Counted from the first letter of the stretch, positions 5,775 through 21,100 are shown. The stretch is DNA of 64,000 nucleotides from Amphiscolops sp. MND2022 (GCA_964187785.1 OZ076409.1:8558001-8622000); one strand, 5' to 3'. Numbers and translations: made by a program. The notes: generated by a model not told the origin, from the letters alone.

Positions 5775-6071
5775 GGTCTCTTGGAACATTACAAAACTGA
5801 CGTGATTGGATTCAGCCAAGCACTGGTGGAGTTTCCGGAGTGGATGTCTACCAGTGAACATAAGCAGCCAGCTAAGTGTGGCACTCTTTTGGGTCACCAT
5901 GCGTACATGGTGCACAGAGCGGGCGCCAACAACAGTTCCACCCGGTGGAGACCTGCTTTGGGGCTGACTTACTGGGCCAAGTCCATCTACGAAGACAAAG
6001 ACCTGATGAAAGCTAAATCCACTTACCAACAATCACTCGAACAAACTCTCATTGAGACTGGAAAAGTTTAG
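5775..6071 (+). CDS. Terminal exon of PhyH-family dioxygenase gene
   Basis: Acceptor tttgtttgtag (AG 5773-5774); GLLEHYKTDVIGFSQ...GTLLGHHAYMVHRAGANNSSTRWRPAL has the distal Fe-binding His and 2OG-binding Arg pattern (H....N.S...R); stop TAG ends 6071. Confidence 0.88.
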   Translation, partial: GLLEHYKTDVIGFSQALVEFPEWMSTSEHKQPAKCGTLLGHHAYMVHRAGANNSSTRWRPALGLTYWAKSIYEDKDLMKAKSTYQQSLEQTLIETGKV

Positions 6072-6138
6072 CTTTGACTACCGGAAATTTGGTCGTTAGA
6101 ATATTCATCGCCAGAAATTTCGCCGTCGGTAATTACGT

Positions 6139-6222
6139 CGTCGCGTTATGACTAACGCTTAACAATCACTATTTAGAAAACACCTGCAGAAATAAGAAGC
6201 TTAACAATCCTTTTTTTGCTAC
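6139..6222 (+). mobile_element. LTR 5' fragment of the same family as the LTR at 42774-43218
   Basis: cGTCGCGTTATGACTAACGCTTAACAATCACT...CACCTGCAGAAATA...AACAATCC matches 42774-42805 and 42995-43050. Confidence 0.55.
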
Positions 6223-6719
6223 AATAATAGTTAACAGAGGATACATATGTATGACAAATACTGCCATAAATGCGTATTACAAATAATAGGTTGCAAATTG
6301 CGGTGTTAAAATGATATACGTAGCACATAAATTATGGATGTGCCTCGAATTATTGGTAAATTCAATTTCCGGAGCATTAAATCAATACATGGCGTACGAA
6401 AGAGATGAATTCAATAAGAACTGAGCTGAGTCGTTTTGTTCACAAATCAACATCGATCTTAGTGTTCGTATGAGTGATAATGGAATTTTAATTTCTAACG
6501 CCAAAGCACCATGTCTCAACATCATTCACGGGGAGCCGAATTTGAGTCTCGAAAATTTGGGAGCCGAAAAATGAAAGTTGTGATTTTATTATACTTAAAA
6601 GAAATTAGTCAGAAGGTTCAGTCAATTTCATGCGTTGTGGAGATGTTCCAAAAAGAGGGTCACTTTCAAATCATTCTTTTGTGCCGCACAGTTAGTTCAA
6701 CTTTCCCAATTCGTGAACA

Positions 6720-8010
6720 CAGAATTAGTCAATTGAACCAAAGAATTTGGTATCACCCTTCCACCGAGAGCAGCAAATTCTCCGTGGACAAACGGCAAGT
6801 TAGAAACCCAAAATCAACACCTTGCACCATACTGGAGAACCTTCCTAAACGAGTCTGGAAACAACTGTGCTCCCTTAGCACCCAAGTTTGCCTTTGCCAA
6901 TAATAGTGCCAACTATACAACTGGAAAGACTCATTACGAAATTGTCTTCTGCTACCAACCACCAATACCTATGAGTCTGAAGCTGGGAATCTATAGGAAC
7001 CCAAACAAGAACTGTCAATCACAGTTCTGCAAGGGACTACTTCGCCATTGCCATAGTGGAAACCAAGTGAAAAACAACTTACCGAACTACTAAGACCACA
7101 ACTATCACAAAGCTTGCTGGAAAGAGAAACTGCTATCAAAAGAACTTCTCATCCACATACGAAAATTGTAGGAAACAAACAGCTCGATCACACACCTACA
7201 GAAACAGATTGAAACTTGGAAATCACCTCAACGTCGGACGAAATGTTCGGTTAGAAAACCACCGAAAAGATCTCTCGGTAAGCCAAAAATTCCAACGACT
7301 GCGACTAAGACACTACAGTGACCAAGCGAATTACCAAAAAAGCATACCAAATTATAAGACGACCAAGATCCCGAAAATCTTCGAACTGTGCATATAGAAA
7401 TCATCTAATAGAGTATTTCCCCAAAGAGGAAACACTTCCTCCCTTTACGGAAAAATACACAACCCCTTACGGTGGAGACACGGACTTTTATAATAAATTG
7501 GTCGACGCGGAACATTTGCCCATCAAACCTCAAGCTACAACCCGAAAACAAAGTGCAGTATATCTATATGCAAATACAACTATCCTATTTCTTTAACCTG
7601 AATGATTTCAAACACTCGAAAAACATTTTCCTCACTTTTTACGAACTCCGCTCGGGCCGCTCCAAGGTAATTGAACCTCAAAAGGTACCCATTGCGAGTG
7701 CAAACTCAAAATTTGTCCGATTCCCGTGAGCAATGAAATAACTGATTGCATTCTCAGATTTGCTGTGATATATGAATGCCAGTGATTGACTCCAGACGCA
7801 ACCGATGATCATTATCTTCAAAATCGACAATCGCCTTTCACAAATCACATATATCCAGGAGCTCTCAATGCAGAACATATCATCCAACTGCAGAAAAAAG
7901 TGAAACATACATTTGTGTACCGGAATCGCGCATCTACCCTCTGCTGGAGAGCTTACTCTACAATAACACACCTACAGAAGTCTTCACAAGCGCCAAGTCA
8001 GTCGTTCAAT
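6720..8010 (+). pseudogene. Degenerate Ty3/Gypsy integrase C-terminal region
   Basis: Frameshifted translation GITLPPRAANSPWTNGKLETQNQHL...KFAFA..NYTTGKTHYEIVF...PIPMSLKLG resembles the rve P.TNG..E..N motif and downstream integrase; many stops and frameshifts. Confidence 0.7.
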
Positions 8011-8055
8011 GTCCTCGCCTAAAGTTACTGTCTCGTGCGATAGCGAGGACTACTT

Positions 8056-8826
8056 TCACTCCCTTGAACGAAAAACCAGATTTTGTGCAATCCCGAAATG
8101 ATACCCACGGAAAGGCAGATAAGCACTGAAGCGTAGGAAAATAGGACAGTTGAAGTAGGCATCCAACCCTCCCTCATCCAACAGCCGAAGTTGCCACTCC
8201 CTCTCAGCGGTACTCCAAACTGCCCATAGACGGCGAAACTGATCCCTCTGGAACAGGGTTAGACGGGAATAACCCAAAATGTAGCTTCGTAATTGAAAGA
8301 GAAGCATACCTCTCTGCTCTGCAAGGAAGGCGGGACTACCACCTCCTCCCATACACTTGCATGAGGGAGGCCGAAAACCTTCCGAAATTGCCGGGAAAAT
8401 AACGACAAACCCTCGATATCCTCTAGCCGACACTTTGCCCCCAACTAAGAAAATCCATGAAGGACTCTTCGTCTCCATCGCAGAGCTCGCCCCGTACCAT
8501 TAAACTGGCGGCCGGCGAGCAAGAGAGGCAGAGGCGACAGCCGACGATCCAACGGGCACCTAGGTGTCCAGGCGGCTAGCTCCGGCCACAGGCTCCACTT
8601 GCGGAGCCACAACCACAGCAGAACTCGACGGTGAAAAACGAGAGGAAGGGAAGCTGCCACCCACAGACGACGAAGGACTAGAAGGTAAATCGGCGGAGGA
8701 GGAGGACCCACCAGCACTGGCAGAAGAGGAGACCGAGGGAGGCACGAGCGAAGGGGCAGACGAAGCTTCGTCAGTGGATGATTCCTCATAATAGTCCTCT
8801 ATGTTGTTGCTCATTACTGAATACAA
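8056..8826 (-). pseudogene. Disrupted orphan gene with Ser/Pro-rich N-terminus
   Basis: Consecutive ORF fragments 8560-8826 (EESSTDEASSAPS...) and 8056-8478 (..FQRDQFRRLWAVWSTAEREWQLRLLDEGG..); inverted repeat GTCCTCGC/GCGAGGAC (8011-8050) right after the stop. Confidence 0.4.
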
Positions 8827-10434
8827 AGTAGCTGTAAGTTCAAAGTCATGTAAACCTAGATAAATACATAATGAGTGAAATTATCATACCTATATGCCTA
8901 ACTATGTACCGTAGTCATCCAAAATTCGATATATTATTAGAAGAATTCAACCGCATTTAACTCAGTTTCGGCAACCAATAGGATTTCACCAAACTACCAG
9001 GGTTCTACGAAAAACGTTTCGAGTTTTTTTTTTGAAAAATTGTCGCGAAGAAAAATTTACATACCAAATGAAAAATGAACAAGTAAAAAAGGGTTCAAAA
9101 AATCAATTGGCATTCTCAAATCGTCGACTTCCAAAAGTCGCTGATTTTCTCACAGACTCGCTCTATGAAACGGGATGCCTGGGTGAGCTCAACGGCAGTG
9201 AACCCGCTGATGACCTTCAGGAGTCGAGGGTACAGAGTATCGAGTCTGCAAAATCGCTTTGCCTCTGCTTTTGTCTTCCCGAATCCTGTCAAGTTGAACT
9301 TTTTCAGTTCCTGGACTATCGCAGCATCACTCCTAGAGACGATCCTCTGCTGGACAACTTCCACAATATTGCGCCCGATAGCGAACGCTTGCATTATGAG
9401 TCCGTTGTCCTTCATTGGGTCGCTTTGACGAAGATTGTTGCAAATCTTCGTATCAGAGCTCTGAAAAAGGCGCTCATCCAGCGGGGCACGGGTGTCAGCG
9501 GGGGCCTCATTGACTGCTCTGAGGAGGCGGCGCTCAACCTCCTCCTCCGTGAACTGTATTTTCCGGCGTTTGTTGGCCGGAGGAGCTCGCAGCAATGGAG
9601 AGGATGGTGGGGAAAGGGCGTCTGGTGAGGGTTGGATCTGGAAATCAGGCAGCGAAAACGGGGGCAGAATTTCGTCCAAAGGGACACCGATTTGGGGAGT
9701 TTGGCAAACTCCACCACCCGCCATCCTGCTCAGGCTCTCCAAGGAAGACCGGAACTATTGGAGCTGGCTCTGTTACAGAACGGACACTGACAGGGCACGC
9801 CGACAAGCCAAAACCGCGGAACGCAGACTAAACGAAAAACTAAATAAAAACAAGTTTAATACACAACATTTTGAATTAATAAGAATAGGTTGATAACTTA
9901 AAAATACTCCCACCTCCTCCCATACATTTGCATGAGGAAGGCCGAAAACCTTCCGAAATTGCCGGGAAAATAACGACAAACCCTCGATATCCTCTAGCCG
10001 ACACTTTGCCCCCAACTAAGAAAATCCATGAAGGACTCTTCGTCTCCATCGCAGAGCTCGCCCGTACCATTAAACTGGCGGCCGGCGAGCAAGAGAGTTA
10101 GCGGCGACAGCCGACGATCCAACGGGCACTTAGGTGTCCAGGCGGCTAGCCCCGGCCACAGGCTCCACTTGCGGAGCCACAACCACAGCAGAACTCGACG
10201 GTGAAAAACCAGAGGAAGGGAAGCTGCCACCCACAGATGACGAAGGACTAGAAAGTAAATCAGCGGAGGAGGAGGACCCACCAGCTCTTGCAGAAGACGA
10301 GGAGACCGAGGGAGGCACGAGCGAAGCGGCAGACGAAGCTTCCTCGTCAGTGGATGATTCCTCATAATAGTCCTCTGTTGTTGCTCATTACTGAATACAA
10401 AGTAGCTGTACGTTCAAAGTCATGTAAACCTAGA
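8339..10434. repeat. ~520-bp direct repeat pair (8339-8860 and 9910-10434)
   Basis: Near-identical sequences (both yield ORF MSRRLAPATGSTCGATTT...) flanking the 208-aa ORF. Confidence 0.9.
9116..9742 (-). CDS. Orphan 208-aa ORF, Pro-rich N-terminus, NLS-like PANKRRK, helical C-terminus
   Basis: Uninterrupted ATG-initiated ORF, GC-richer than its flanks, co-oriented with the other element genes; no family recognised. Confidence 0.5.
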   Translation of the reverse strand: MESLSRMAGGGVCQTPQIGVPLDEILPPFSLPDFQIQPSPDALSPPSSPLLRAPPANKRRKIQFTEEEVERRLLRAVNEAPADTRAPLDERLFQSSDTKICNNLRQSDPMKDNGLIMQAFAIGRNIVEVVQQRIVSRSDAAIVQELKKFNLTGFGKTKAEAKRFCRLDTLYPRLLKVISGFTAVELTQASRFIERVCEKISDFWKSTI

Positions 10435-11056
10435 CGTGGACGGCAAAACGAAGAGTCCAGTAGGCGGGAAAGTGTTAAAAAGAGAAAAAAGCTACTAACG
10501 ATTGGATGAGCGTCGTCTTCAGTCGGGTGTTGGTTGGTGGTTAATTAGTGGTTAATGATGTTAGAGAATGCGGAAGGGTTGTCGTTACATAAGTTTTCTC
10601 AAAGTCAAAAAAACTAGAATATTGCACGGTGTCCACCCTCTGTAGTAGAACTTTGTGCGATACTCAACAAAGTAACCTAAAGTAAAGAAAACTGGAACCA
10701 CGCTTATCGTCGATTCAACTTAGTCAGACTGTTTTACCCAAACCTTATTGATAACCTAATGTGACGAATATCAGAATGATGCTAAAACTTTACGTGTAAT
10801 TAAATGGAAATGTTCACAATTAAATCCTAATTTCTTAAAGCTGGAATGAGTTGGAAAAAAAATGAAGGAAGTTTTTAAAAAGTTTCAATTAGGCCTGAAA
10901 ACTTTCTAGTTACGCCGCTTTTTAGCCAGATAGTTCCTTGTAAGAAACTGTGTATAGTTTCTTGTTAGAAACTGCGGAGTTTATTTACTTAATAATCAAA
11001 ACAGAAAGTGTATAATACAAAACAAAAATGCCTCTTATTTGGAGTTTTAAAATAAA

Positions 11057-11175
11057 GTGAACAACTGAAGGCACTCAGGTCTCCCAAATTGTTCACAATA
11101 ACAGCGCTGTAACTTTATTGCTTCGAGTTTTTTTGGCCAGTGGCTGAAGGCACTCAGGTCTCCCAAACCACTGAC
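11057..11175 (-). ncRNA. Two copies of a conserved-loop stem-loop motif at the 3' end of the RPA-like gene
   Basis: Loop GAAGGCACTCAGGTCTCCCA (11067-11086, 11146-11165) closed by different 10-bp stems GTGAACAACT/AATTGTTCAC and GCCAGTGGCT/AACCACTGAC; minus-strand AATAAA at 11114-11119. Confidence 0.6.
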
Positions 11176-12258
11176 CACTGCAACATCCGTTCCTCAAGAA
11201 GTCTGGGGGTTTGCTGTTGTTCCACTCGTCTCGGGGGTTGCTGTTGTTCCACTCGTCTGGGGGCTGCTGTAACTCCTTCTCCTCTGTACATCTTCGCCTT
11301 CTGTTCGTCTGTCATCTCCTTCTCCGGTTCCAGTCTCGCGATGTGGAAGTTCTTGTTTTCCACGGCTGTTCCTTCCTCGTCCACAGCGGATTTAAACCAA
11401 CCTAAAATCCTAAATCCCTCCCCTGTATTTATTTCCCTAACCAAATCTTGAACAAATGTATCCAATTGAAACCGATCAATACTGTCCGATTCAGCCTTAA
11501 ATCTCCTAACCTCTCGACTTACAAAAAAATCCGTTGATTGAGATGAATAGATAGATAAAAAGTCTTCGTTGTGCACGTTTTCATTCAACTCCGGACAGGT
11601 GAACTCAAAAAAAGGACCCAATTTTTCTTGCCGTTCGACTCAAGACATCCGCACGGCTCGTGTTATGTCTGACCGTCGCACAGTTTGCCAGCACAGACGT
11701 TGTCTGCGATGACGGCAGAGTCGACCTTGAGTTGCTTGGTCACGAACGAGAAAAAACGAAATTCCAATGAAGACCCTTCAACGTCGTAAGGGGGTAGCGT
11801 GATTTGGTTGATGGCGGCTGTCGTCGGAATGAGTGGCTCTCTTGTTGAAATCAGCGGCGTTCCTCCTCTTGAAAGTTGTCCTTCGATGTTGGGCTTGATT
11901 ATCGTTACCACCGATCCAGGCTTGAGGTTCTCAAAATATCGAAAGAGGGTCCTTGATTCCTCACTGTTGGCGCTGAATAAGGCAATTACTGTGGACGTTC
12001 CAGGCTCTCCTAATACCAAGAACCGGTGGTATTTCTCCAACTCCATCTTCCTTCCTCCTTGATTGTAATTCTTTGTCATCTTTGTGTAGTTGATCTTTTT
12101 GTTGGCTGGGTAACATATAGTATTACTGCAGTCAACATGTTCAGTCGTGGGGTGGCAGTATCTGGATGAAGCATGGCTTCCAACGTGATCAAAGTGAAGT
12201 TTGCGAGCAAAGCTTGGGCTTGTGCAATGGACAAATTGGCTTTGAAGAAACCAGGCAT
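11154..12258 (-). pseudogene. OB-fold/C4-zinc-ribbon protein (divergent RPA70-like ssDNA-binding candidate), ~365 codons, disrupted
   Basis: Three ORF pieces (12258-12076, 12079-11663, 11621-11154) joined by 2 frameshifts and a TAA; read-through gives VCAGKLCDGQT*HEPCGC; LKPGSVVTIIKPNI resembles OB-fold strands. Confidence 0.45.
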
Positions 12259-12389
12259 GTTTGATCTGTGAAGTAAACTCTACCGTTGACTCGAAACTAC
12301 GATATAATTTTAGAAATTTCTAAGGCTACTGATATGACGACAGACTACCTTTCCATTATATACAAACAAGTAATTTAATAGAAGAGTTA

Positions 12390-12515
12390 ATTAAAGCTAA
12401 GTTACTACTCGATTCAAGATAGATCTTTGATAAAGCTAATTTACTACCTGATTAAAGATAAACCATTACTAAAGCTAATTTGCTACTAAAGGAAATGAAT
12501 ATTAAAAGCTAACTA
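12390..12515. repeat. Degenerate ~40-bp tandem repeat upstream of RPA-like gene
   Basis: TAAAGCTAA(G/T)TT(A/G)CTAC recurs ~4 times at ~40-bp spacing. Confidence 0.6.
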
Positions 12516-13180
12516 TCTTCAGCTCAACTGTACAGATTCTAACTACTTGCAGGCAAACAGTTTTTACATTAAGGTCCCATCAGCTAAACAAAAGGAAAAG
12601 AATGAACAAGAAATTCCAATGAAATCTGATCGGATTTTCGATTATACTGGACTGAATTTTGACATTGAACACAAATAATAAAAACAAATACGATTGGATC
12701 TGATATCGCAATTTAATAAAATTACATGTTGAATAAGAATTACGGACAATTTTGGAAAAATTCCAATTTTTGACAAAATTTTTTTGTGTGCGTAATTAGT
12801 TTTCTGTCATTCTTTTCGTTTTGTTGAGCTGAAAGGTTTAATTTTTTTGGTTTTTTGTCTTTTATATTTTTTTTGGATTTTTAAGGGGTTTTATGATTTT
12901 TTTGCTTTTTCGGGGAACTTTTGTATTTTTTTTGAGAGTTTGTGTTTTCTGTTTCAACCACAAAGGCGCGCAAATTGTGAGACAGCTGCAGTAGAAGACG
13001 AAATGAGCGCAAGAAGTACACGAAGTAATGGCAAGCAGAACATCCCGAAATCAACTGACAGCTGGCAATCCGGTTTCCAGGCCAAATGTCCTCTTGTCGA
13101 TCTCCGTGCTTCCACAGCCTGAAAAGAACCGTTCTAACAAGAATAAAGGAAACAAAAAGAAACGACAAAGAGGACGGGGG

Positions 13181-13213
13181 GTCAGTTTAAGCCACTAAAG
13201 GGCTTAAACTGAC
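13181..13213. other. Perfect 13-bp hairpin downstream of SGNH ORF
   Basis: GTCAGTTTAAGCC-ACTAAAG-GGCTTAAACTGAC. Confidence 0.75.
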
Positions 13214-13283
13214 AGAAAAGCGAAAAACTGCAAGTAAAACTAAAAGTGAAAGAAATTAGGGTTGAAATTAGGAAGAAGGCATT

Positions 13284-13907
13284 TTAGCCGTAAAAGCGAA
13301 GTATCTTTCCGATACTCATTTTGAGGGAGTCAACTGTCTGGTGGGCAGGATCGTTAATTTTGAATGAAGAATTCGAAAGGTTTAAATCAAAATACTCAAA
13401 GTTTTGCTGTAACAAGGCATTCATTCGTAAATCGAGATCAGACTCGAACGTTCTCACAATGTCGCCCACTTTTCGATTGGTATCTGAGGGAAGTTTTATT
13501 GAATCTTCTTTCTTTCGCCGCACTAAAACAACAACAAAATGTGAGGGACGACAGAGTTCTTGCAAAACTTGTAAATGATTAATAACTTCATTCGGGGTTA
13601 AGACAGACGCATTTGGAGGGGCATGAGGAGGCAAAGTTAACGAATTCATGATACAGTCATGGTATACTACTACGGTGTGGGGACGAAATGAGAGGGCATC
13701 GTTGAAAATATTGCACAGGTTCTTTGCAGGATCTGGATGTTGGAATCTGGCTCCACTGGCGGCGAAATTCTTGTAGACTATCTGAGGGGGGACTTGAGGA
13801 CAGTGACGGCGGTTCCTACATGGCTCCAGGCACGTGCAAGTTTCCCACGGCTGCCTCTCAAAAGAGACGAGGTTGCTTGCACCAACAAGAGCGACACGAG
13901 AAACCAT
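13284..13907 (-). CDS. SGNH/GDSL-hydrolase-fold protein, 207 aa, intact
   Basis: Block I VALVGASN, block II NFAASGA, block III VVVYHDCIMNSL, block V DPAH followed by a C-terminal helix. Confidence 0.65.
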   Translation of the reverse strand: MVSRVALVGASNLVSFERQPWETCTCLEPCRNRRHCPQVPPQIVYKNFAASGARFQHPDPAKNLCNIFNDALSFRPHTVVVYHDCIMNSLTLPPHAPPNASVLTPNEVINHLQVLQELCRPSHFVVVLVRRKKEDSIKLPSDTNRKVGDIVRTFESDLDLRMNALLQQNFEYFDLNLSNSSFKINDPAHQTVDSLKMSIGKILRFYG

Positions 13908-14189
13908 ACTTTTAACCTGAAGAGCAGGTACTGAATGAAGTTTCCATGTTTGTGTTTGAGATTTCGACCAATTTTAGGAGCCGATAGGCGCGGAAATTAA
14001 CAATCTCTCTACATCCTATTCTAAACCTACAACCTTTCAAAAAACGTGAAGTACAAAAAACAAGTGAGGTTTACGACAATCATTTCCGAAATCTTCTTTT
14101 GGCGTTCTGGACCGTCTTCATCTTCTTTTCTTCTTCTTTGTTTGATCGATCTATTATATATGTTACTGAAATAGATATTAAATAATCTC

Positions 14190-14757
14190 ATCCGTTCTTC
14201 TTGTCTTCTTCATCTGGACGCAACTACTATAAATATTACTATTATAGATATTAATTATTCTCATCTTCCGAATCTTCTTTTCTTCTTCATCTGGACGCAA
14301 CTACTATAAATATTACTACTATAAATAATAATTATTCTCATCTTCCGAATCTTCTTTCTTCTTCATCTGGACGCAACTACTATAAATATTACTAATATAA
14401 ATAAAAATAATAATTATTCTCATCTTCCGAATCTTCTTTCTTCTTCATCTGGACGCAACTACTATAATATTACTATCATACATATTAATATTCTCATCTT
14501 CCGAATCTTCTTTCTGCTTCATCTGGACGCAACTACTATAAATATTACTACTATAAATAATAATCATTCTCATCTTCCGAATCTTCTTTCTTCTTCATCT
14601 GGACGCAACTACTATAATATTACTATTATACATATTAATATTCTCATCTTCCGAATCTTCTTTCTTCTTCATCTGGACGCAACTACTATAAATATTACTA
14701 TTATACATATTAATTATTCTCATCTTCCGAATCTTCTTTCTTCTTCATCTGGACGCT
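14190..14757. repeat. Minisatellite, ~75-bp unit, ~8 copies
   Basis: TTCTTCATCTGGACGCAACTACTATAAATATTACTA...TTCTCATCTTCCGAATCTTCTTT repeated. Confidence 0.93.
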
Positions 14758-14984
14758 CTGGTATAAACACTAGTTTGAATGTATCCAAAAACGTCTCAAT
14801 GCTCAACTCCACTCATTCTCACTACGTAAGGCAAAAGAATGGTTAAGTTTTAGAAGAAGTCAATTAAAGTCTGGATTTTAGAGTTTTAGTCAAAAAGTGC
14901 AAGTCAAAAAAGTCAAGTTTTGGGAAAGTCCGGTTTTGGTCTGAGAATTCACATTTTAGAATTTCACGATCTTTATTTAATTAG

Positions 14985-15594
14985 AGTGTGTCAGCGTGGA
15001 AGGCACTAAGGGCTACACGTGCTGCTACACTGGTTAGAAGTGATCAGTCTTTTTTTAATATGAAATGTGTATAAGCTTGGAAGGCTCAAAGGGGCTACAC
15101 AAGCTCATACACTGTAAGTCTGTATTGTCGTCTCCTGCTGTTCTGCTCCTCGTGTCGTCTGCTTCTGCTCTCGGTGTGTTTCGTTTACTTTTTTTTACAA
15201 AACAAGTGACTGGAGGCACTCAGGTCTCCCAAGCCACTTGCCAACCGATACCACACACTTTTTACATTTTAAGATGTTTCATTTTACATTTAAAGACAAG
15301 TGACAGAAGGCACTCTGGTCTCCCATGCCACTTGCCAACCACTAACCATTTTAAACAAGAATTTTTACATTTAAAGACAAGTGACAGAAGGCACTCTGGT
15401 CTCCCATGCCACTTGCCAACCACTAACCATTTTAAACAAGAATTTTTACATTTAAAGACAAGCGACAGAAGGCACTCTGGTCTCCCATGCCACTTGCCAA
15501 CCGATACCAACACACTTTTTACTTTTTACAACGGTTCATTTTACAATTTGAGGACAAGTGACAGAAGGCACTCAGGTCTCCCATGCCACTTGCC
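14985..15594 (-). ncRNA. Array of seven conserved-loop stem-loops in the 3' region of the helicase-nuclease gene (includes an 81-bp tandem triplet)
   Basis: Hairpins at 14985-15031, 15067-15112, 15201-15242, 15295-15336, 15376-15417, 15457-15498, 15553-15594; loops G(A/G)AGGC-N~12-CA; minus-strand AATAAA at 14972-14977. Confidence 0.6.
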
Positions 15595-17735
15595 AACCAC
15601 TAACCTTTTAACCTGTTGCTTCACAATGGACAATTTTAATGAGGCAGATGGCTCAAAAGGGCAACATACCTCGATAGTGAATTTTCCAAAATTGATAATT
15701 TTAGATGGATCGAAATTCCCCGCACTGGGACGATCGCGGCGTTCGAACATTTCATTGTGAATTGCGCTCTCAAAATCGCGGCGCGAAAACATTGACGCAA
15801 AATTGCACACGCAACCAGCGACAGCCCAAGGCAAACGATGCGATGTCTTGGTAAAATTAGATCCGTTGCCGCTGTTGTGTTCCGACAGCCGTGTCAAAAG
15901 AGCGCGTTCTGTCTGTCCTACATAAAAACATTCAGGCGACGTCGGGTTGAGGCTAACTAAAAGGTAAACAAAACCGCCGGGTGTTCTGGGTATGTTTTTG
16001 TTGAATGGTTCAAAAGCCATTTTCGAGATGTTAATTGGCTGAACAATGCCACCTAATCGCGAGTTGGTTCTGATTTTGTCTAACAGACTGAAAAGACGTT
16101 CTTCGCGCAAATCTCTATTTTCAAAAATTGACTTGATCGCGCCTAACGTAGCTGGCTTATCTTCGACAAAAGTGAGGTTTTTCAACTGTTTCACTCGACT
16201 CACTATGACGAAGACCTGAGACGTCATCCACAACGCATAGCTACTGTCAGTTGCGGAAATGAACGTCGCCAGCTTGTCGAACGTGTCACCCGTGAGTTTG
16301 TGTGTTGTCATGGCCACATTGTTCATCAACGGTATCTGGATCCTTCTGACTGAGTTCTTCTTGAAGGACTGCACGAAACCGGTTTGCTGCGAAAGAGTCA
16401 CTGAGCGCCAGTTCAGGTAGTCCTCGTGATCCAGCATCGCCTGAGTGATGTCAACGTCACCACCACTAGTGTCAGGGATGAACACTGTGACCGAGTCACC
16501 GGTAGGGACCTCATGGACTACACCAACCTGTCCTTGAGACAACTGCTCACTTTCCATATTAACTGTGACCCTTACCAAAGCCTTTGAGTAAACAATGAGG
16601 TGCTTGGGCTCGTTCACTTTGTCGCTCAGGTGGTTACCTACTTGACGAGAGTCGGTCTGATTCCACACTGAGCTCTTGGACAAACAGATTTCGTCAGTGG
16701 CCTCGAAGATCCTGAAAGCAGTTCCGGACTCGCGTACTCGCTGAATGTGGCTTTCGAATTCTTTTTGCTCAGCTTTCCGCTTTCCGAAAACACGCATGAC
16801 ACACGGGTCGTCCAGATCAGCTCAACTTTCCTTGAAAGTGCACTTTGCTTCCAGAATTGCCAGAATCTCGGCAACTGCAGGGGCATCGATGGGACGTCTC
16901 TACATGTGTCGAAGAACTGTTTGGCCTGCTTCATCTGTCATGCGAACGAAGTGCCCCAGAAAGAACAACGCGAAGTTGGTCAACAGAACAGGCGAGAGAA
17001 AGATGTCATTGCCTTCGATGGATGGCAGTTGCATTTGATCACCGCTAGCAATCACCAGAACGCCACCGAAAGGCAAGGTGGTCTGCTTCAACTCCTGGAG
17101 CACAATGTCCATTGCAGACCACTGTTCGGCGCTGATCAAGCTGACTTCTTCCACGAACAGCACTTCCAGGGCCAGGAGGAGCATCTTCTTCTCATTCCTG
17201 TGATCCAGCTCGTTCAACGCTTGTTCAGCCATCTTGATCGGAGAGCCAGAAGATGAGGGTGGCAAGCAGAACAATTTGTGGATGTGCTCACCACCGAAAT
17301 GGATTGACCTCCTCGAAGCTAAACTTGTAACCAAACAAAACAAACCTTTCGAAAGCGCATACCCTAACGCCATTGTTAGTACGTGAGTTTTACCTGTACC
17401 AGGAGGACCTAAAATCAACTGATGTCTGTTAAACCGGTGACCTGAAAACAAACTTTCAATGATTAAATTTTTCAGAGTTTCTAAAATTTGGGACTGCTCC
17501 TGCAAAGACTCAGCTGACTGGAAAACATTTGCAATGAGGTCAGCAGACCAGTTCGAAGGTGTTTCTTTGGTCACTGTTTCAAAATCGTTAGAAGATGGAA
17601 AATTCGGTAAATTTTTTTTTTGCGTCAACGACTTAATGATGTTAACTTGTGACTGACGAAGCAACTTCTTGGCCTTTTCCTCTAGTGCTTCAGTCAAAGT
17701 GTCCATCGTCGTGATTGGCAAGCCTTCATTGCCAA
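15541..17735 (-). pseudogene. PIF1-family SF1B helicase fused to C-terminal GIY-YIG nuclease; 5'-truncated, two in-frame nonsense codons
   Basis: Motifs ILGPPGTGKT, GGEHIHKLF, VLFVEEVSLIS, PFGGVLVIASGDQMQLP, RIQIPL..VAMTTHKLTGDTF, QVFVIVSRV; then FVYLLVS...FYVGQT...RLSEHNSG...PW; ORFs 16900-18024 and 15541-16797 are in one frame, separated by TAG (16900-16902) and a TGA in KES*ADL. Confidence 0.85.
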
Positions 17736-17740
17736 TGTTC

Positions 17741-18170
17741 GTCCACGCCCACGAACAAGCCGGAGGCGAATACCAGACTCGCCACTCAGCACACCATGCA
17801 CGACTCGCGGGTACGCTAATGAAGGACGTCCTTGGAGGTATGTGCAGAAAGATACCATGTGCACTTGGATTGCCATGGAAAGAGGCTTGGTTGGATATCT
17901 GCATACACCGACAGCGCCGAAGATAGGGGCCAAGACAGGAGCCATGGTGGCCACAGAATCCTCCACCTCGGCCAGTGTCAGGTCGGCAATCTGTTGCGGC
18001 ATTGGGAACCCTGCTGTCTCCCATGGGATTTGACTGTCAGAATTATGCAATGGTTGAGACTGGTCCACGCCCACGAACAAGCCGGAGGCGAATACCAGAG
18101 TTGAATACAGCCAGTGTTGGACAGACGCACGCATGCGTTCCAATTGGGCCTCCGAAAACATTTCGAAAAT
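17741..18170 (-). pseudogene. Fragment of an unrelated orphan ORF abutting the truncated helicase
   Basis: EMFSEAQLERMRASVQHWLYSTLVFASGLFVGVD...; exact 37-bp direct repeat at 17741-17777 and 18063-18099. Confidence 0.35.
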
Positions 18171-21100
18171 TGAATTTGTAGTTGCAATGCGACAGAATGA
18201 GTTTAAGCAATCGCTGGTACTTGCTAATTTCTTCTCGGGTATTGTAACTTGATTGTGATTTGTAGTTGAAACGTTCGCGTGTGACACTTCCCGCCCTGCG
18301 CTGGAAAATTTCTCGTTTCCACTCGACGCGCGAGAAAAATTGCTGATTTTCCCGCGCCGCGCGGGAAACTGCTCAATAATCCGTTAGTTGTTGAGAAATT
18401 GTGACTATAAGGCTGCCGCGCGGGAAATTCTCTTCGTGTTCTACCTATGAGACAGACATTTCCCGCCGCGCGTGGGAAATTCTCTTCGTGTTCTACGAAT
18501 GAGACAGACATTTCCACCTCTGACACTGTCGCCATGTCGATTTCGTCTGGATAGAGATAATCTCCTTCCTCTGCGACATCAGCGATGTTGGTTAGGGGTG
18601 ATGGGGTGTTATCGTTTATTTCTCTGGAAAATCAAAATCAAACGATAATAACTTCAGTAATTTTCCTCTGAATTTTCTTCGATAAAAAACCAACATCGAA
18701 AGATCTTGCACTGGTTCCGACAAATCGAATTGGGGAAATTCCAGGTTGCTGATGCTAATTGGTGAAGACATTCTAAAACAGACAAAAAAGATGAGATTGA
18801 AGATTTTTTCAGGTGATTGAAATGAGGAGTTGATTGCAAAAACAACTAACGTTTCTGCTGAATTTATAGAGTCTGCTGAATCTGCTGAACGTTGCTGAGT
18901 CTTGAGCTAATGAATTTGTAAAGTCTGCTGAATCTGTTGAACGTTGCTGAGACTGGAGCTGCTGAATTTGTAGTTGCAATGCGACAGAATGAGTTTAAGC
19001 AATCGCTGATACTTGCTAATTTCTTCTCGGGTATTGTAACTTGATTGTGATTTTTAGTTGAAACGTTCGCGTGGGACACTTCCCGCCCCGCGCGGGAAAA
19101 TTGCTCGTTTCCACTCGACGCGCGAGAAGAATTGCTGATTTTCCCGCGCCGCGCGGGAAACTGCTCAATAATCCGTTAGTTGTTGAGAAATTGTGACCAT
19201 AAGGCTGCCGCGCGGGAAAGTCTCTTCGTGTTCTACCTATGAGATAGACATTTCCCCTCCGCGCGCGGGAAATTCTCTTCGTGTTCTACTAATGATACAG
19301 ACATTTCCACCTCTGACACTGTCGCCATGTCGATTTCGTCCGGATAGAGATAATCTCCTTCCTCTGCGACATCAGCGATGTTGGTTAGGGGTGATGGGGT
19401 GTTATCGTTTATTTCTCTGGAAATTCAAAATCAAACGATAATAACTTCAGTAATTTTCCTCAGAATTTTCTTCGATAAAAAACCAACATCGAAAGATCTT
19501 GCACTGGTTCCGACAAATCGAATTGGGGAAATTCCAGGTTGCTGATGCTAATTGGTGAAGACATTCTAAAACAGACAAAAAAGATGAGATTGGAGATTTT
19601 TTCAGTTGATTGAATTGAGGAGTTGATTGCAAAAACAACTAACGTTTCTGCTGAATTTGTAGAGTCTGCTGAATCTGCTGAACGTTGCTGAGTCTTGAGC
19701 TGCTGAATTTGTAAAGTCTGCTGAATCTGCTGAACGTTGCTGACTCTGGAGCTGCTGAATTTGTAGTTGCAATGCGACAGAATGAGTTTAAGCAATCGCT
19801 GATACTTGCTAATTTTTTCTCGGCTATTGTAACTTGATTGTGATTTGTAGTTGAAACGTTCGCGTGGGACATTTCCCGCCCCGCGCGGGAAAATTGCCCG
19901 TTTTCACTCGACGCGCGAGAAAAATTGCTGTTTTTCCCGCGCCGCGCGGGAAACTGCTCAATAATCCGTTAGTTGTTGTGAGAAATTGTGACCATAAGGC
20001 TGCCGTGCGGGAAATTCTCTTCGTGTTCTACCTATGAGACAGACATTTCCCGCCGCGCGCGGGAAATTCTCTTCGTGTTCTACTAATGAGACAGACATTT
20101 CCACCTCTGACACTGTCGCCATGTCGATTTCGTCTGGATAGAGATAATCTCCTTCCTCTGCGACATCAGCGACGTTGGTTACCCGTGATGGGGTGTTATC
20201 GTTTATTTCTCTGGAAAATCAAAATCAAACGATAATAACTTCAGTAATTTTCCTCAGAATTTTATTCGATAAAAAACCAACATCGAAAGATCTTGCACTG
20301 GTTCCGACAAATCGAATTGGGGAAATTCCAGGTTGCTGATGCTAATTGGTGAAGACATTCCAAAACAGACAAAAAAGATGAGATTGAAGATTTTTTCAGT
20401 TGATTGAAATGAGGAGTTGATTGCAAAAACAACTAACGTTTCTGCTGAATTTGTAGAGTCTGTTGAACGTTGCTGAGTCTTGAGCTGCTGAATTTGTAAA
20501 GTCTTCTGAATCTGCTGAACGTTGCCGAGTCTGGAGCTGCTGAATTTGTAGTTGCAATGCGACAGAATGAGTTTAAACAATCGCTGATACTTGCTAATTT
20601 CTTCTCGGGTATTGTAACTTGATTGTGATTTGTAGTTGAAACGTTCGCATGGGACACTTCCCGCCCCGCGCGGGAAAATTGCTCGTTTCCACTCGACGCG
20701 CGAGAAAAATTGCTGATTTTCCCGCGCCGCGCGGGAAACTGCTCAATAATCCGTTAGTTGTTGTGAGAAATTGTGACCATAAGGCTGCCGCGCGGGAAAT
20801 TCTCTTCGTGTTCTACTAATGAGACACACATTTCCACCTCTGATACTGTCGTCATGTCGATTTCGTCTGGATAGAGGTGATCTCCTTCCTCTGCGACATC
20901 AGCGATGTTGGTTAGGGGTGATGGGGTGTTATCGTTTATTTCTCTGGAAAATCAAAATCAAACGATAATAACTTCAGTAATTTTCCTCAATTTTCTTCGA
21001 TAAAAAACCAACATCGAAAGATCTTGCACTGGTTCCGACAAATCGAATTGGGGAAATTCCAGGTTGCTGATGCTAATTGGTGAAGACATTCTAAAACAGA

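Follow-up and report, generated by a model that had tools for sequence, protein, structure and literature searches.

A stretch of 64,000 nucleotides from Amphiscolops sp. MND2022 (GCA_964187785.1, OZ076409.1:8558001-8622000) was analyzed. This whole stretch is called the window, coordinates are positions within it, and genome searches were made in the 1.07-Gb assembly from which it comes. Three genes of a Helitron-like element are found on the minus strand: the remnant of a Rep-helicase-nuclease (RepHel-nuclease) gene, an SGNH/GDSL esterase-like open reading frame (ORF), and a tandem-OB gene whose product is RPA70-like at the level of its predicted fold. Minisatellites lie between these genes, and hairpins with a conserved loop follow two of them. 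Helitron-like elements play a major part in shaping eukaryotic genomes. The interval 10428-17731 is very probably a dead, 5′-truncated copy of an autonomous rolling-circle transposon from a deep and little-described Helitron-like clade. It belongs to a known type of transposon, within which its branch has been little described, and is not a new type.

The extent of the element was obtained using BLASTN of window positions 6000-20000 against the four closest full-length loci. The identity to these copies is 98% for 15726-17731, approximately 90% for 14120-15611, approximately 79.5% for 11264-14756, and 88% for 10428-11185, and no match to the four copies appears beyond 10428 or 17731. The window copy (10428..17731, minus strand) therefore corresponds to about the 3′ 7.3 kb of a unit of about 13.75 kb and is co-linear with all four. 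An earlier reading made from the sequence alone had drawn the element from 8011 to 18170 with five to six co-oriented minus-strand genes. The interval 10428-17731 stands as a co-linear unit, whereas 6000-10427 and 17732-18170 are unmatched in the full-length copies. The predicted ORFs are real and lie on the minus strand, but they reduce to three genes, since the two helicase ORFs belong to one frame and the ORFs at 8-10.4 kb lie outside the element. Rep and about 1,650 N-terminal codons are lost. Because Rep is lost, the helicase carries two nonsense codons, and the OB gene is broken, the window copy is incapable of autonomy.

The minisatellites that the sequence-only reading had placed between the genes were recovered with Tandem Repeats Finder. 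A 76-bp repeat with 7.3 copies (14196..14756) separates the RepHel and SGNH-like genes, and its copy number differs among element copies, as the staggering of the BLAST matches to all four full-length copies shows. An 81-bp repeat with 2.7 copies (15282-15502) falls within a repeat region 3′ of the RepHel ORF (15188..15620, minus strand), and a 39-bp repeat with 2.6 copies is found at 12387-12487.

The RepHel-nuclease protein

Two helicase-related ORFs appear on the minus strand in a stop-to-stop listing of the window. ORF 16900-18036 encodes the N-terminal half of a PIF1-like helicase (Pfam PIF1, E 5.5e-11), and ORF 15541-16821 encodes the C-terminal half followed by a GIY-YIG domain (Pfam, E 8.4e-6). 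The read-through translation of 15541-17640 (minus strand) is one frame with two in-frame stops and corresponds to about the last 700 of the 2,373 residues of the intact protein; the last 60 or so residues of the remnant are unlike those of intact copies. Comparison with the intact protein identifies the stops as nonsense codons, TAG at 16900..16902 and TGA at 16822..16824, each in place of a Trp codon of the intact copies. A frameshift or an intron between the two ORFs was considered and rejected, since the break consists of these two codons.

When the 426-residue window ORF was used as the query, 107 matches were found in the genome. At 34 of these places the match sits in an open frame of at least 2,207 codons, and full-length copies can thus be recovered by genome search. 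Four copies are 97% identical over residues 1-365 and have open frames of 2,421-2,429 codons. One of these loci, L017, encodes an unbroken protein of 2,373 residues from the first Met (P0001). The Pfam domains of P0001 are Helitron_like_N at 1034-1131 (E 5e-10), PIF1 at 1775-1911 (E 6.7e-11), and GIY-YIG at 2260-2330 (E 3.8e-4). Pif1 structures in the PDB match the RepHel protein at E 2e-10. The N-terminal 1,000 or so residues contain many conserved Cys and His residues and are zinc-finger-rich. From this domain layout, the part deleted in the window is therefore a Helitron-type HUH Rep together with about 1,000 N-terminal residues. A deleted Rep-bearing N-terminus had been proposed before any full-length copy was at hand, and Helitron_like_N does lie upstream of the helicase in the full-length copies. 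The proposal of a giant transposon of the rolling-circle type that encodes its own helicase, nuclease, and single-stranded DNA-binding protein likewise agrees with these copies, in which a HUH-Y2 Rep, PIF1, and GIY-YIG are present and the OB gene is syntenic.

Conservation was assessed in 20 full-length proteins of 24-32% identity that were aligned end to end. The HUH residues H1127 and H1129, the tyrosines Y1298 and Y1302, the Walker A residues, and Y2262 and S2266 of the GIY-YIG domain are invariant. Residues Y2276, G2278, R2287, H2291, N2292, and E2327 are kept in at least 90% of the proteins.

The nuclease domain lies at 15757..15972 (minus strand; Pfam residues 284-355 of ORF 15541-16821), and its motif residues are undamaged in the window copy. 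A profile was built from 12 tails (the window, one intact copy, and ten metagenome loci) and compared with solved structures. SLX1 is matched at E values from 3.1e-17 (4xlg_A) to 9.7e-12, UPF0213 at 3.7e-7, and UvrC at 0.28. Residues Y35, Y49, G51, R60, H64, and E100 are invariant across the 12 tails. The single-sequence search reached SLX1 at E 0.034 only, and a search of NCBIfam with the nuclease tail and three relatives gave only a sub-threshold match to a group I intron endonuclease. The tail aligns with the catalytic domain of SLX1, including the pattern Y..Y.G..R..HN...PW...FE..WQ, and is assigned to the SLX1 type. It differs from SLX1 in that no RING/PHD zinc finger follows it, no SLX4 partner is implied, and it is fused to a transposase.

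The same three ORFs could in principle form an immobile cluster of host genes, in which a nuclease-tailed helicase of the PIF1 family sits beside an RPA paralogue and an esterase. All three ORF types do have cellular protein folds. The RepHel, OB, and SGNH proteins have 107, 143, and 150 genome matches, respectively, where a single-copy host helicase would have spoken against a mobile element; the ends are conserved, a Rep domain is present in the intact copies, and the window copy is truncated and carries nonsense codons. The copy number and the Rep domain refute the host cluster, whose probability we regard as negligible, and the transposon reading is retained.

Accessory genes and conserved-loop hairpins

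The SGNH/GDSL esterase-like ORF (13284..13973, minus strand) is open in the window copy, and a Met at about 13907 aligns with the starts of its homologues. The ORF has 222 codons in intact copies. The four SGNH blocks appear in the alignment as conserved GASN, GGARF, MNSLT, and DPAHQT segments, and the nearest neighbours of the protein in a language-model comparison are GDSL families (0.93-0.94). The structural model is of low confidence, with a predicted local distance difference test (pLDDT) score of 64.6, and its best fold match is the GDSL protein 4rw0_A at E 2.2e-3. The homologue search returned 13 unnamed proteins, and a sequence search of the PDB gave chance-level matches only.

The OB gene (11154..12319, minus strand) is split in the window by a stop and a frame change into ORFs 11663-12319 and 11154-11639. 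It is a single ORF of 389 codons in intact copies. The homologue search returned 23 unnamed proteins, and a sequence search of the PDB gave no match. A model based on 17 sequences has a pLDDT of 74.5. In Foldseek this model matches RPA70, archaeal RPA, CTC1, Teb1, and baculovirus LEF-3, with a best E of 2.5e-5 and 13 matches at E ≤0.001; template modelling scores are low, as expected for a two-domain protein. A Cys/His cluster, C-x4-C-x5-H-x2-C-x-C, is conserved. On the evidence of the model, the product is a tandem-OB, RPA70-like protein at the fold level and is predicted to bind single-stranded DNA.

The order RepHel, SGNH, OB on one strand is found by coordinate comparison at 13 loci including the window, and the accessory genes are syntenic in all four of the closest full-length copies. 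Loss of synteny, which would have spoken against a single unit, is thus not what these copies display. At six or more loci of subfamilies with 80-82% identity, OB follows RepHel with no SGNH match between them. Among the subfamilies in which OB accompanies RepHel-GIY, OB identity falls to approximately 31-37%. On metagenome contigs, 35 RepHel-GIY loci were found; the OB profile matches an ORF beside RepHel-GIY on seven of these contigs (E 1e-8 to 1e-15), and the SGNH profile has no match on the metagenome contigs.

The window was also compared with an intact copy over 10428-15726 (L013/L017). The non-coding spacers are 91-99% identical, the SGNH ORF is 55-84% identical and the OB ORF 41-78%, with breakpoints near the ORF ends. 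Spacers more conserved than ORFs are the reverse of the usual pattern. Because the spacers are nearly identical while the ORFs diverge, these alignments suggest that the accessory ORFs have been swapped as cassettes between subfamilies. In the same comparison pN/pS (the ratio of amino-acid-changing to silent differences) is 0.31 for SGNH and 0.42-0.45 for the two parts of OB, so that amino-acid-changing differences are fewer than silent ones, at silent sites that are near saturation.

The SGNH-like gene, and possibly the OB gene, might be captured host passengers kept for a benefit, host or selfish, that has no bearing on transposition, which is one option proposed for the texim genes. The SGNH-like gene occurs in some subfamilies only, in no metagenome relative, and also in arrays lacking RepHel, and the ORFs behave as exchangeable cassettes within a near-identical backbone. 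Gene capture is known for Helitron-like elements, and in the accessible part of PMC4021074 the texim SGNH genes are described as adjoining fish Helitrons, upstream of or around the coding region, with introns. Likened by that description, the present gene shares a putative SGNH fold and an association with a Helitron-type element; it differs in lying downstream, between RepHel and OB, and in being intronless and unrecognized by Pfam. The OB gene, by contrast, accompanies RepHel-GIY down to the OB identity given above and on the seven metagenome contigs, which argues for a core role. The pN/pS values are below 1 for both ORFs, and the searches, which gave only the 23 and 13 unnamed proteins, identified no single-copy host homologue. 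The passenger explanation is considered somewhat unlikely, and the transposon is preferably read as carrying its OB gene as a working partner.

Fragments of the SGNH-like ORF are also found in tandem arrays of their own with no RepHel match nearby. These lie on contig C10 at 54,804,259-54,815,176, with a spacing of approximately 1,032 bp, and on contigs C13, C7, and C9.

The hairpins consist of an invariant 19-nt loop, GGGAGACCTGAGTGCCTTC, on an 11-bp stem. The motif has seven matches in the window, all on the minus strand, where 0.01 would be expected. Five hairpins lie in the 81-nt minisatellite 3′ of the RepHel ORF (15188..15620, minus strand; motif matches and covariation), and two with differing stem sequences lie at or just past the end of the OB gene (11051..11180, minus strand). 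A hairpin common to the 3′ sides of two genes had been noticed in the sequence-only reading, and these two sites bear it out. In the window and the full-length loci together, 44 matches were found, all in the sense orientation, with five to eight sites per locus in the minisatellite after the RepHel stop and two at the OB gene end.

The stem sequence varies by site while pairing is kept. Across 11 distinct stem sequences, 95.9% of the alignment cells are paired, and both sides have changed in six of the 11 pairs. Neither the pairing score nor the covariation score was reached by any of 500 shuffles, and slid controls pair in only 26-46% of cells. G-U pairs are frequent, which fits a structure in sense-strand RNA or single-stranded DNA. 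Single-sequence folding of the hairpin is unremarkable (z -1.0 to -2.3), and Rfam has no match across 7500-19500.

Element ends and tandem arrays

The 3′ terminus of the window copy, ...GCCGTCCACGTCTAGGT, lies at 10428..10475 (minus strand), and the flank beyond it is unrelated. The last 300 nt have 52 matches in the genome, and 35 of these stop at query positions 296-301. All 25 of the 3′ ends that were inspected finish in ...CTAG(G/A)T. In 14 of them CTAGGT is directly followed by G(G)CC..., the head of another unit, and the sequence that heads the next unit also trails an internal CTAGGT upstream of every full-length copy. At six exact solo ends the next base is T in four and A in two. The element ends in ...CCACGTCTAGGT, and unit heads begin with G(G)CC. 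The autonomous unit spans from just past one CTAGGT to its own CTAGGT, which is 13,752 bp in the copy measured.

A first 5′ boundary at a ...ATCAACGCC... module was rejected, as this module is the 3′ end of a preceding non-autonomous unit. When the terminal 200 nt at either end of the intact unit were compared for inverted repeats (at least 10 nt, one mismatch allowed), a single chance-like match of 10 nt was obtained. A common core, GGG(T/G)AGGG(C/T)CCC, is found 30-60 nt past CTAGGT in unit heads such as L046, L049, L055, and L063 and also within the initial 60 nt of the intact unit. Short inverted arms flank the core, and their sequence varies by unit. At the 5′ end, the core and its arms may form a second structured signal.

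A 1,300-nt query taken upstream of a full-length copy proved to be one non-autonomous unit of 1,287 bp (L015:1243-2530). At least 115 matches were found in the genome, from 1,298 first-look candidates; most of the matches listed cover query positions 1-1286/1288, and many adjoin one another. Each unit ends with two TCAACGCC boxes, the palindrome GGCATGCC-GA-GGCATGCC, and CTAGGT. Arrays of these units are found on contig C1 at 72.9-76.4 Mb and 38.16 Mb, on C8 at 25.59-25.70 Mb, and on C7 at 16.10 Mb. Autonomous copies are joined head-to-tail with 1,287-bp units, which directly precede them; the arrays are therefore a transposon-derived satellite.

These arrays resemble those described for DINE-1/HINE elements and other Helitron-derived arrays in the available text of PMC4067079, in which short non-autonomous derivatives share ends with the autonomous element, carry palindromes, and form tandem arrays. 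The present units differ in being 1,287 bp long and joined exactly at CTAGGT|GCC, and no subterminal inverted repeats were seen in them.

Placement of the clade and flanking sequence

The last 446 residues of the intact protein were compared with 1.84 billion representative sequences using phmmer. At E ≤0.001, 687 proteins were matched, 403 of them at E ≤1e-10. The named family members are an uncharacterized protein of 2,532 residues from the tunicate Styela clava and a protein of 947 residues from the perkinsid Perkinsus chesapeaki. The other relatives are unnamed proteins from assemblies and metagenomes; three are labelled "predicted GIY-YIG superfamily endonuclease", one of them jointly with "DNA replication protein DnaC". 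Among 19 long relatives, Pfam detects a C-terminal GIY-YIG domain in 18, PIF1 in 16, and Helitron_like_N in five. Three proteins (P0058, P0062, and P0065) end at the helicase without a nuclease and nest beside the family of the window in the tree described below. P0214 and P0224 carry an N-terminal OTU protease domain above the Pfam cut-off, and P0088 has a sub-threshold OTU match after the nuclease.

Many of these relatives lie on contigs (metagenome or assembly) whose length, 11-15 kb, is close to that of one unit, and Rep, helicase, and single-stranded DNA-binding functions are of a replication type. An endogenous virus-like or episomal rolling-circle replicon of approximately 12-14 kb, existing also outside the chromosome and leaving integrated copies, would account for both features, and a virus-like element was an alternative in the sequence-only reading. 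No relative was confirmed in the IMG/VR viral contigs, however (0 of 70 pattern matches). On the contigs of the relatives, 35 flanking ORFs lack capsid, polymerase, and packaging domains in Pfam and show only ankyrin (two), cyclin (one), and one weak Tudor match. Terminal direct overlaps appear in none of 13 long metagenome contigs, and contigs of unit length are also expected from collapsed repeats. The copies in this genome are chromosomal and stand head-to-tail with non-autonomous units. The virus-like alternative is left without support from viral contigs or flanking ORFs and is very unlikely, and the chromosomal transposon remains the preferred reading.

Proteins of two reference groups from the same genome, HLE1 and HLE2, were used for placement. 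The HLE1 family has a 1,320-residue ORF with an RGLTHAH motif and matches Helitron_like_N over positions 1-191 at E 5e-58. HLE2 is represented by three DUF6570-bearing proteins, one of which has a weak Exo_endo_phos match. Neither Exo_endo_phos nor DUF6570 was detected in P0001, scanned to E 0.1, or in any of the 27 relatives scanned. Summed BLASTP scores within the GIY clade are 374-1,156 bits. The clade scores 0-56 bits against HLE1 and 0-82 bits against HLE2, the latter no higher than the 86-102 bits of HLE1 against HLE2.

A quick maximum-likelihood tree of 27 proteins (1,799 columns, LG+G4, unrooted) sets the 23 clade members apart by a branch with a Shimodaira–Hasegawa-like approximate likelihood ratio test (SH-aLRT) value of 100, and the three HLE2 proteins by another at 98. 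The columns kept derive mostly from clade members, HLE1 is represented by one row with no outgroup, and long branches were flagged. By these sequence comparisons, the clade is a clan of its own, apart from the HLE1 and HLE2 of the same genome.

Several observations weigh against the interpretation as an autonomous rolling-circle transposon of a separate clade with these partners. The placement relative to HLE1 and HLE2 depends on four reference proteins of one genome and an unrooted quick tree. A sub-lineage lacking GIY-YIG is nested within the clade, and the nuclease is therefore dispensable for the persistence of at least some members. Neither the 80-82% subfamilies nor any metagenome relative tested has the SGNH-like gene, which is therefore not a core part; the structural model of its product is weak (pLDDT 64.6), with the best fold match above E 0.001. 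Pfam gives no relevant match for the SGNH-like and OB ORFs of the window or for their intact versions. Head-to-tail junctions are all that sets the 5′ end, and they place it only to within CTAGGTG(G)CC. The analysis yielded neither a transposition intermediate nor an empty site or target-site pattern. Since many copies sit in large arrays, some may have arisen through segmental duplication rather than transposition.

Canonical HLE1 elements begin with 5′ TC and end with CTRR 3′, have a hairpin about 11 nt before the 3′ end, and insert between A and T. The present element has in common with HLE1 (e.g., Helraiser, PDB 7lcc) a HUH-Y2 Rep joined to PIF1, with the motifs F.T.T.N, H.H, and YL..Y, and CTAG within its 3′ end. 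This end is CTAGGT rather than CTRR, however, and there is no 5′ TC. Helraiser 7lcc matches the present protein in the helicase only, at E 2.3e-6, which is weaker than bacterial Pif1. Only the C-terminal half of Pfam Helitron_like_N (108-190) matches, compared with 1-191 in HLE1, and the present protein has an N-terminal extension of about 1,000 residues relative to HLE1 and, in addition, a nuclease tail.

The likeness to Helentrons (HLE2) lies in the single giant ORF running from Rep through PIF1 helicase to a C-terminal endonuclease, in the RPA-like gene and the OTU domains of some members (P0214 and P0224), and in internal tandem repeats and abundant non-autonomous derivatives. The Helentron hallmarks used here are those in the accessible text of PMC4067079. 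The endonuclease differs, being an SLX1-type GIY-YIG domain and not Exo_endo_phos, which is found neither in P0001 nor in 19 relatives. DUF6570 upstream of Rep is proposed as an HLE2 marker in the available part of PMC11417382; it is present in all three HLE2 proteins of this genome and in none of P0001 and the 27 relatives. The short terminal or subterminal inverted repeats of HLE2 (12-16 nt) are not matched in the present element, in which none of at least 10 nt is noteworthy. Rep motif 2 contains two extra residues and lacks RGSPH, in comparison with the motifs available from PMC4067079; with motif 2 longer by two residues, the Helitron and Helentron signature residues of that source are not cleanly applicable.

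The sequence-only reading had called the element undescribed. The clade is scarcely described, but one moss family with GIY-YIG is in print: HelenSM92 of Sphagnum magellanicum, an HLE2 family with a "captured" GIY-YIG domain, short inverted termini, and a TT target, according to the accessible text of PMC11417382. It is the only printed mention of a GIY-YIG-carrying Helitron-like family that was found, and the comparison is by description only. The available text of PMC8788227 does not mention GIY, PMC3627910 and PMC6431247, so far as their accessible text goes, deal with other elements, and a literature search for Helitron with SLX1 gave nothing relevant by title or abstract.

The endonuclease-assisted rolling-circle model of Helentrons is the best analogy for the present element. 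For every catalytic step and for the roles of the GIY-YIG, OB, and SGNH proteins, we infer by analogy with Helraiser and Helentrons. At the conserved CTAGGT|G junction, Rep would nick the sense strand, to which one of its two tyrosines would be covalently joined. The helicase would then strip the strand off in the 5′-3′ direction, and the element-encoded OB protein would coat the displaced single strand. The GIY-YIG domain would stand in for the Helentron apurinic endonuclease by nicking the target or cutting branched intermediates. Failed termination at CTAGGT, or insertion beside existing ends, could produce the arrays in which the element adjoins 1,287-bp units head-to-tail. The hairpins that follow the ORFs may be sense-strand cis signals, for RNA 3′-end formation or as a protein-bound site in single-stranded DNA. 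To our knowledge, there is no account of how endonuclease-bearing Helitron-like forms use the extra nuclease.

A second, unrelated nuclease at the position of the Helentron apurinic endonuclease suggests that target or branch cutting has been repeatedly selected in rolling-circle transposition. The clade is widespread and its Rep is weakly seen by Pfam, being detected in five of the 19 long relatives, so annotation pipelines may miss or misfile it. The Amphiscolops genome combines dozens of intact copies, a conserved, putative single-stranded DNA-binding partner, a covarying hairpin, and satellite-forming units, which together link transposition to the birth of satellites. We propose, tentatively and as the less probable outcome, that eukaryotic rolling-circle transposons comprise a third deep lineage in addition to canonical Helitrons and Helitron2/Helentrons, and that the element belongs to it. 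Such a lineage would have recruited an SLX1-type nuclease independently of the Helentron apurinic endonuclease, with an RPA-like core partner and cassette swapping. Its hairpins would be cis signals (a protein-bound single-stranded DNA or second-strand site, or an mRNA 3′-end signal), and run-on copying at CTAGGT would seed satellite arrays of megabase scale.

The sequence on both sides of the window copy is of other origin. Between the truncation point and the neighbouring satellite, 440 bp (17732-18170) are unmatched to the element and contain an exact 37-nt repeat at 17741-17777 and 18063-18099. The satellite, of approximately 790 bp with about 28 tandem units of 90-96% identity, runs from 18171 to about 40293. 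It was considered as a part of the element and rejected, as it lacks CTAGGT and does not match the element.

On the other side, Ser-rich ORFs and ORF 9116-9754 (within 8056-10413) are placed outside the element because 6000-10427 is unmatched in the full-length copies by BLASTN. These are the orphan genes at 8-10.4 kb that had been counted among its genes; they are not part of it. Positions 8335-8866 are a local duplicate, of approximately 530 bp, of 9906-10434; the identity is 94-98% in blocks, and the duplicated segment takes in the last 7 nt of the element. A Ser-rich ORF encoded by the duplication has no family match, and just one further match to it, a weak one, was found in the genome. 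A repeat of approximately 970 bp (8939-9905), which holds ORF 9116-9754, is found at a dozen or more other places with 73-90% identity. Its 85-nt tip recurs in inverted orientation 20-34 kb away at four other loci, which suggests a second and very large transposon, inverted at its termini, of which 8939-9905 is one end.

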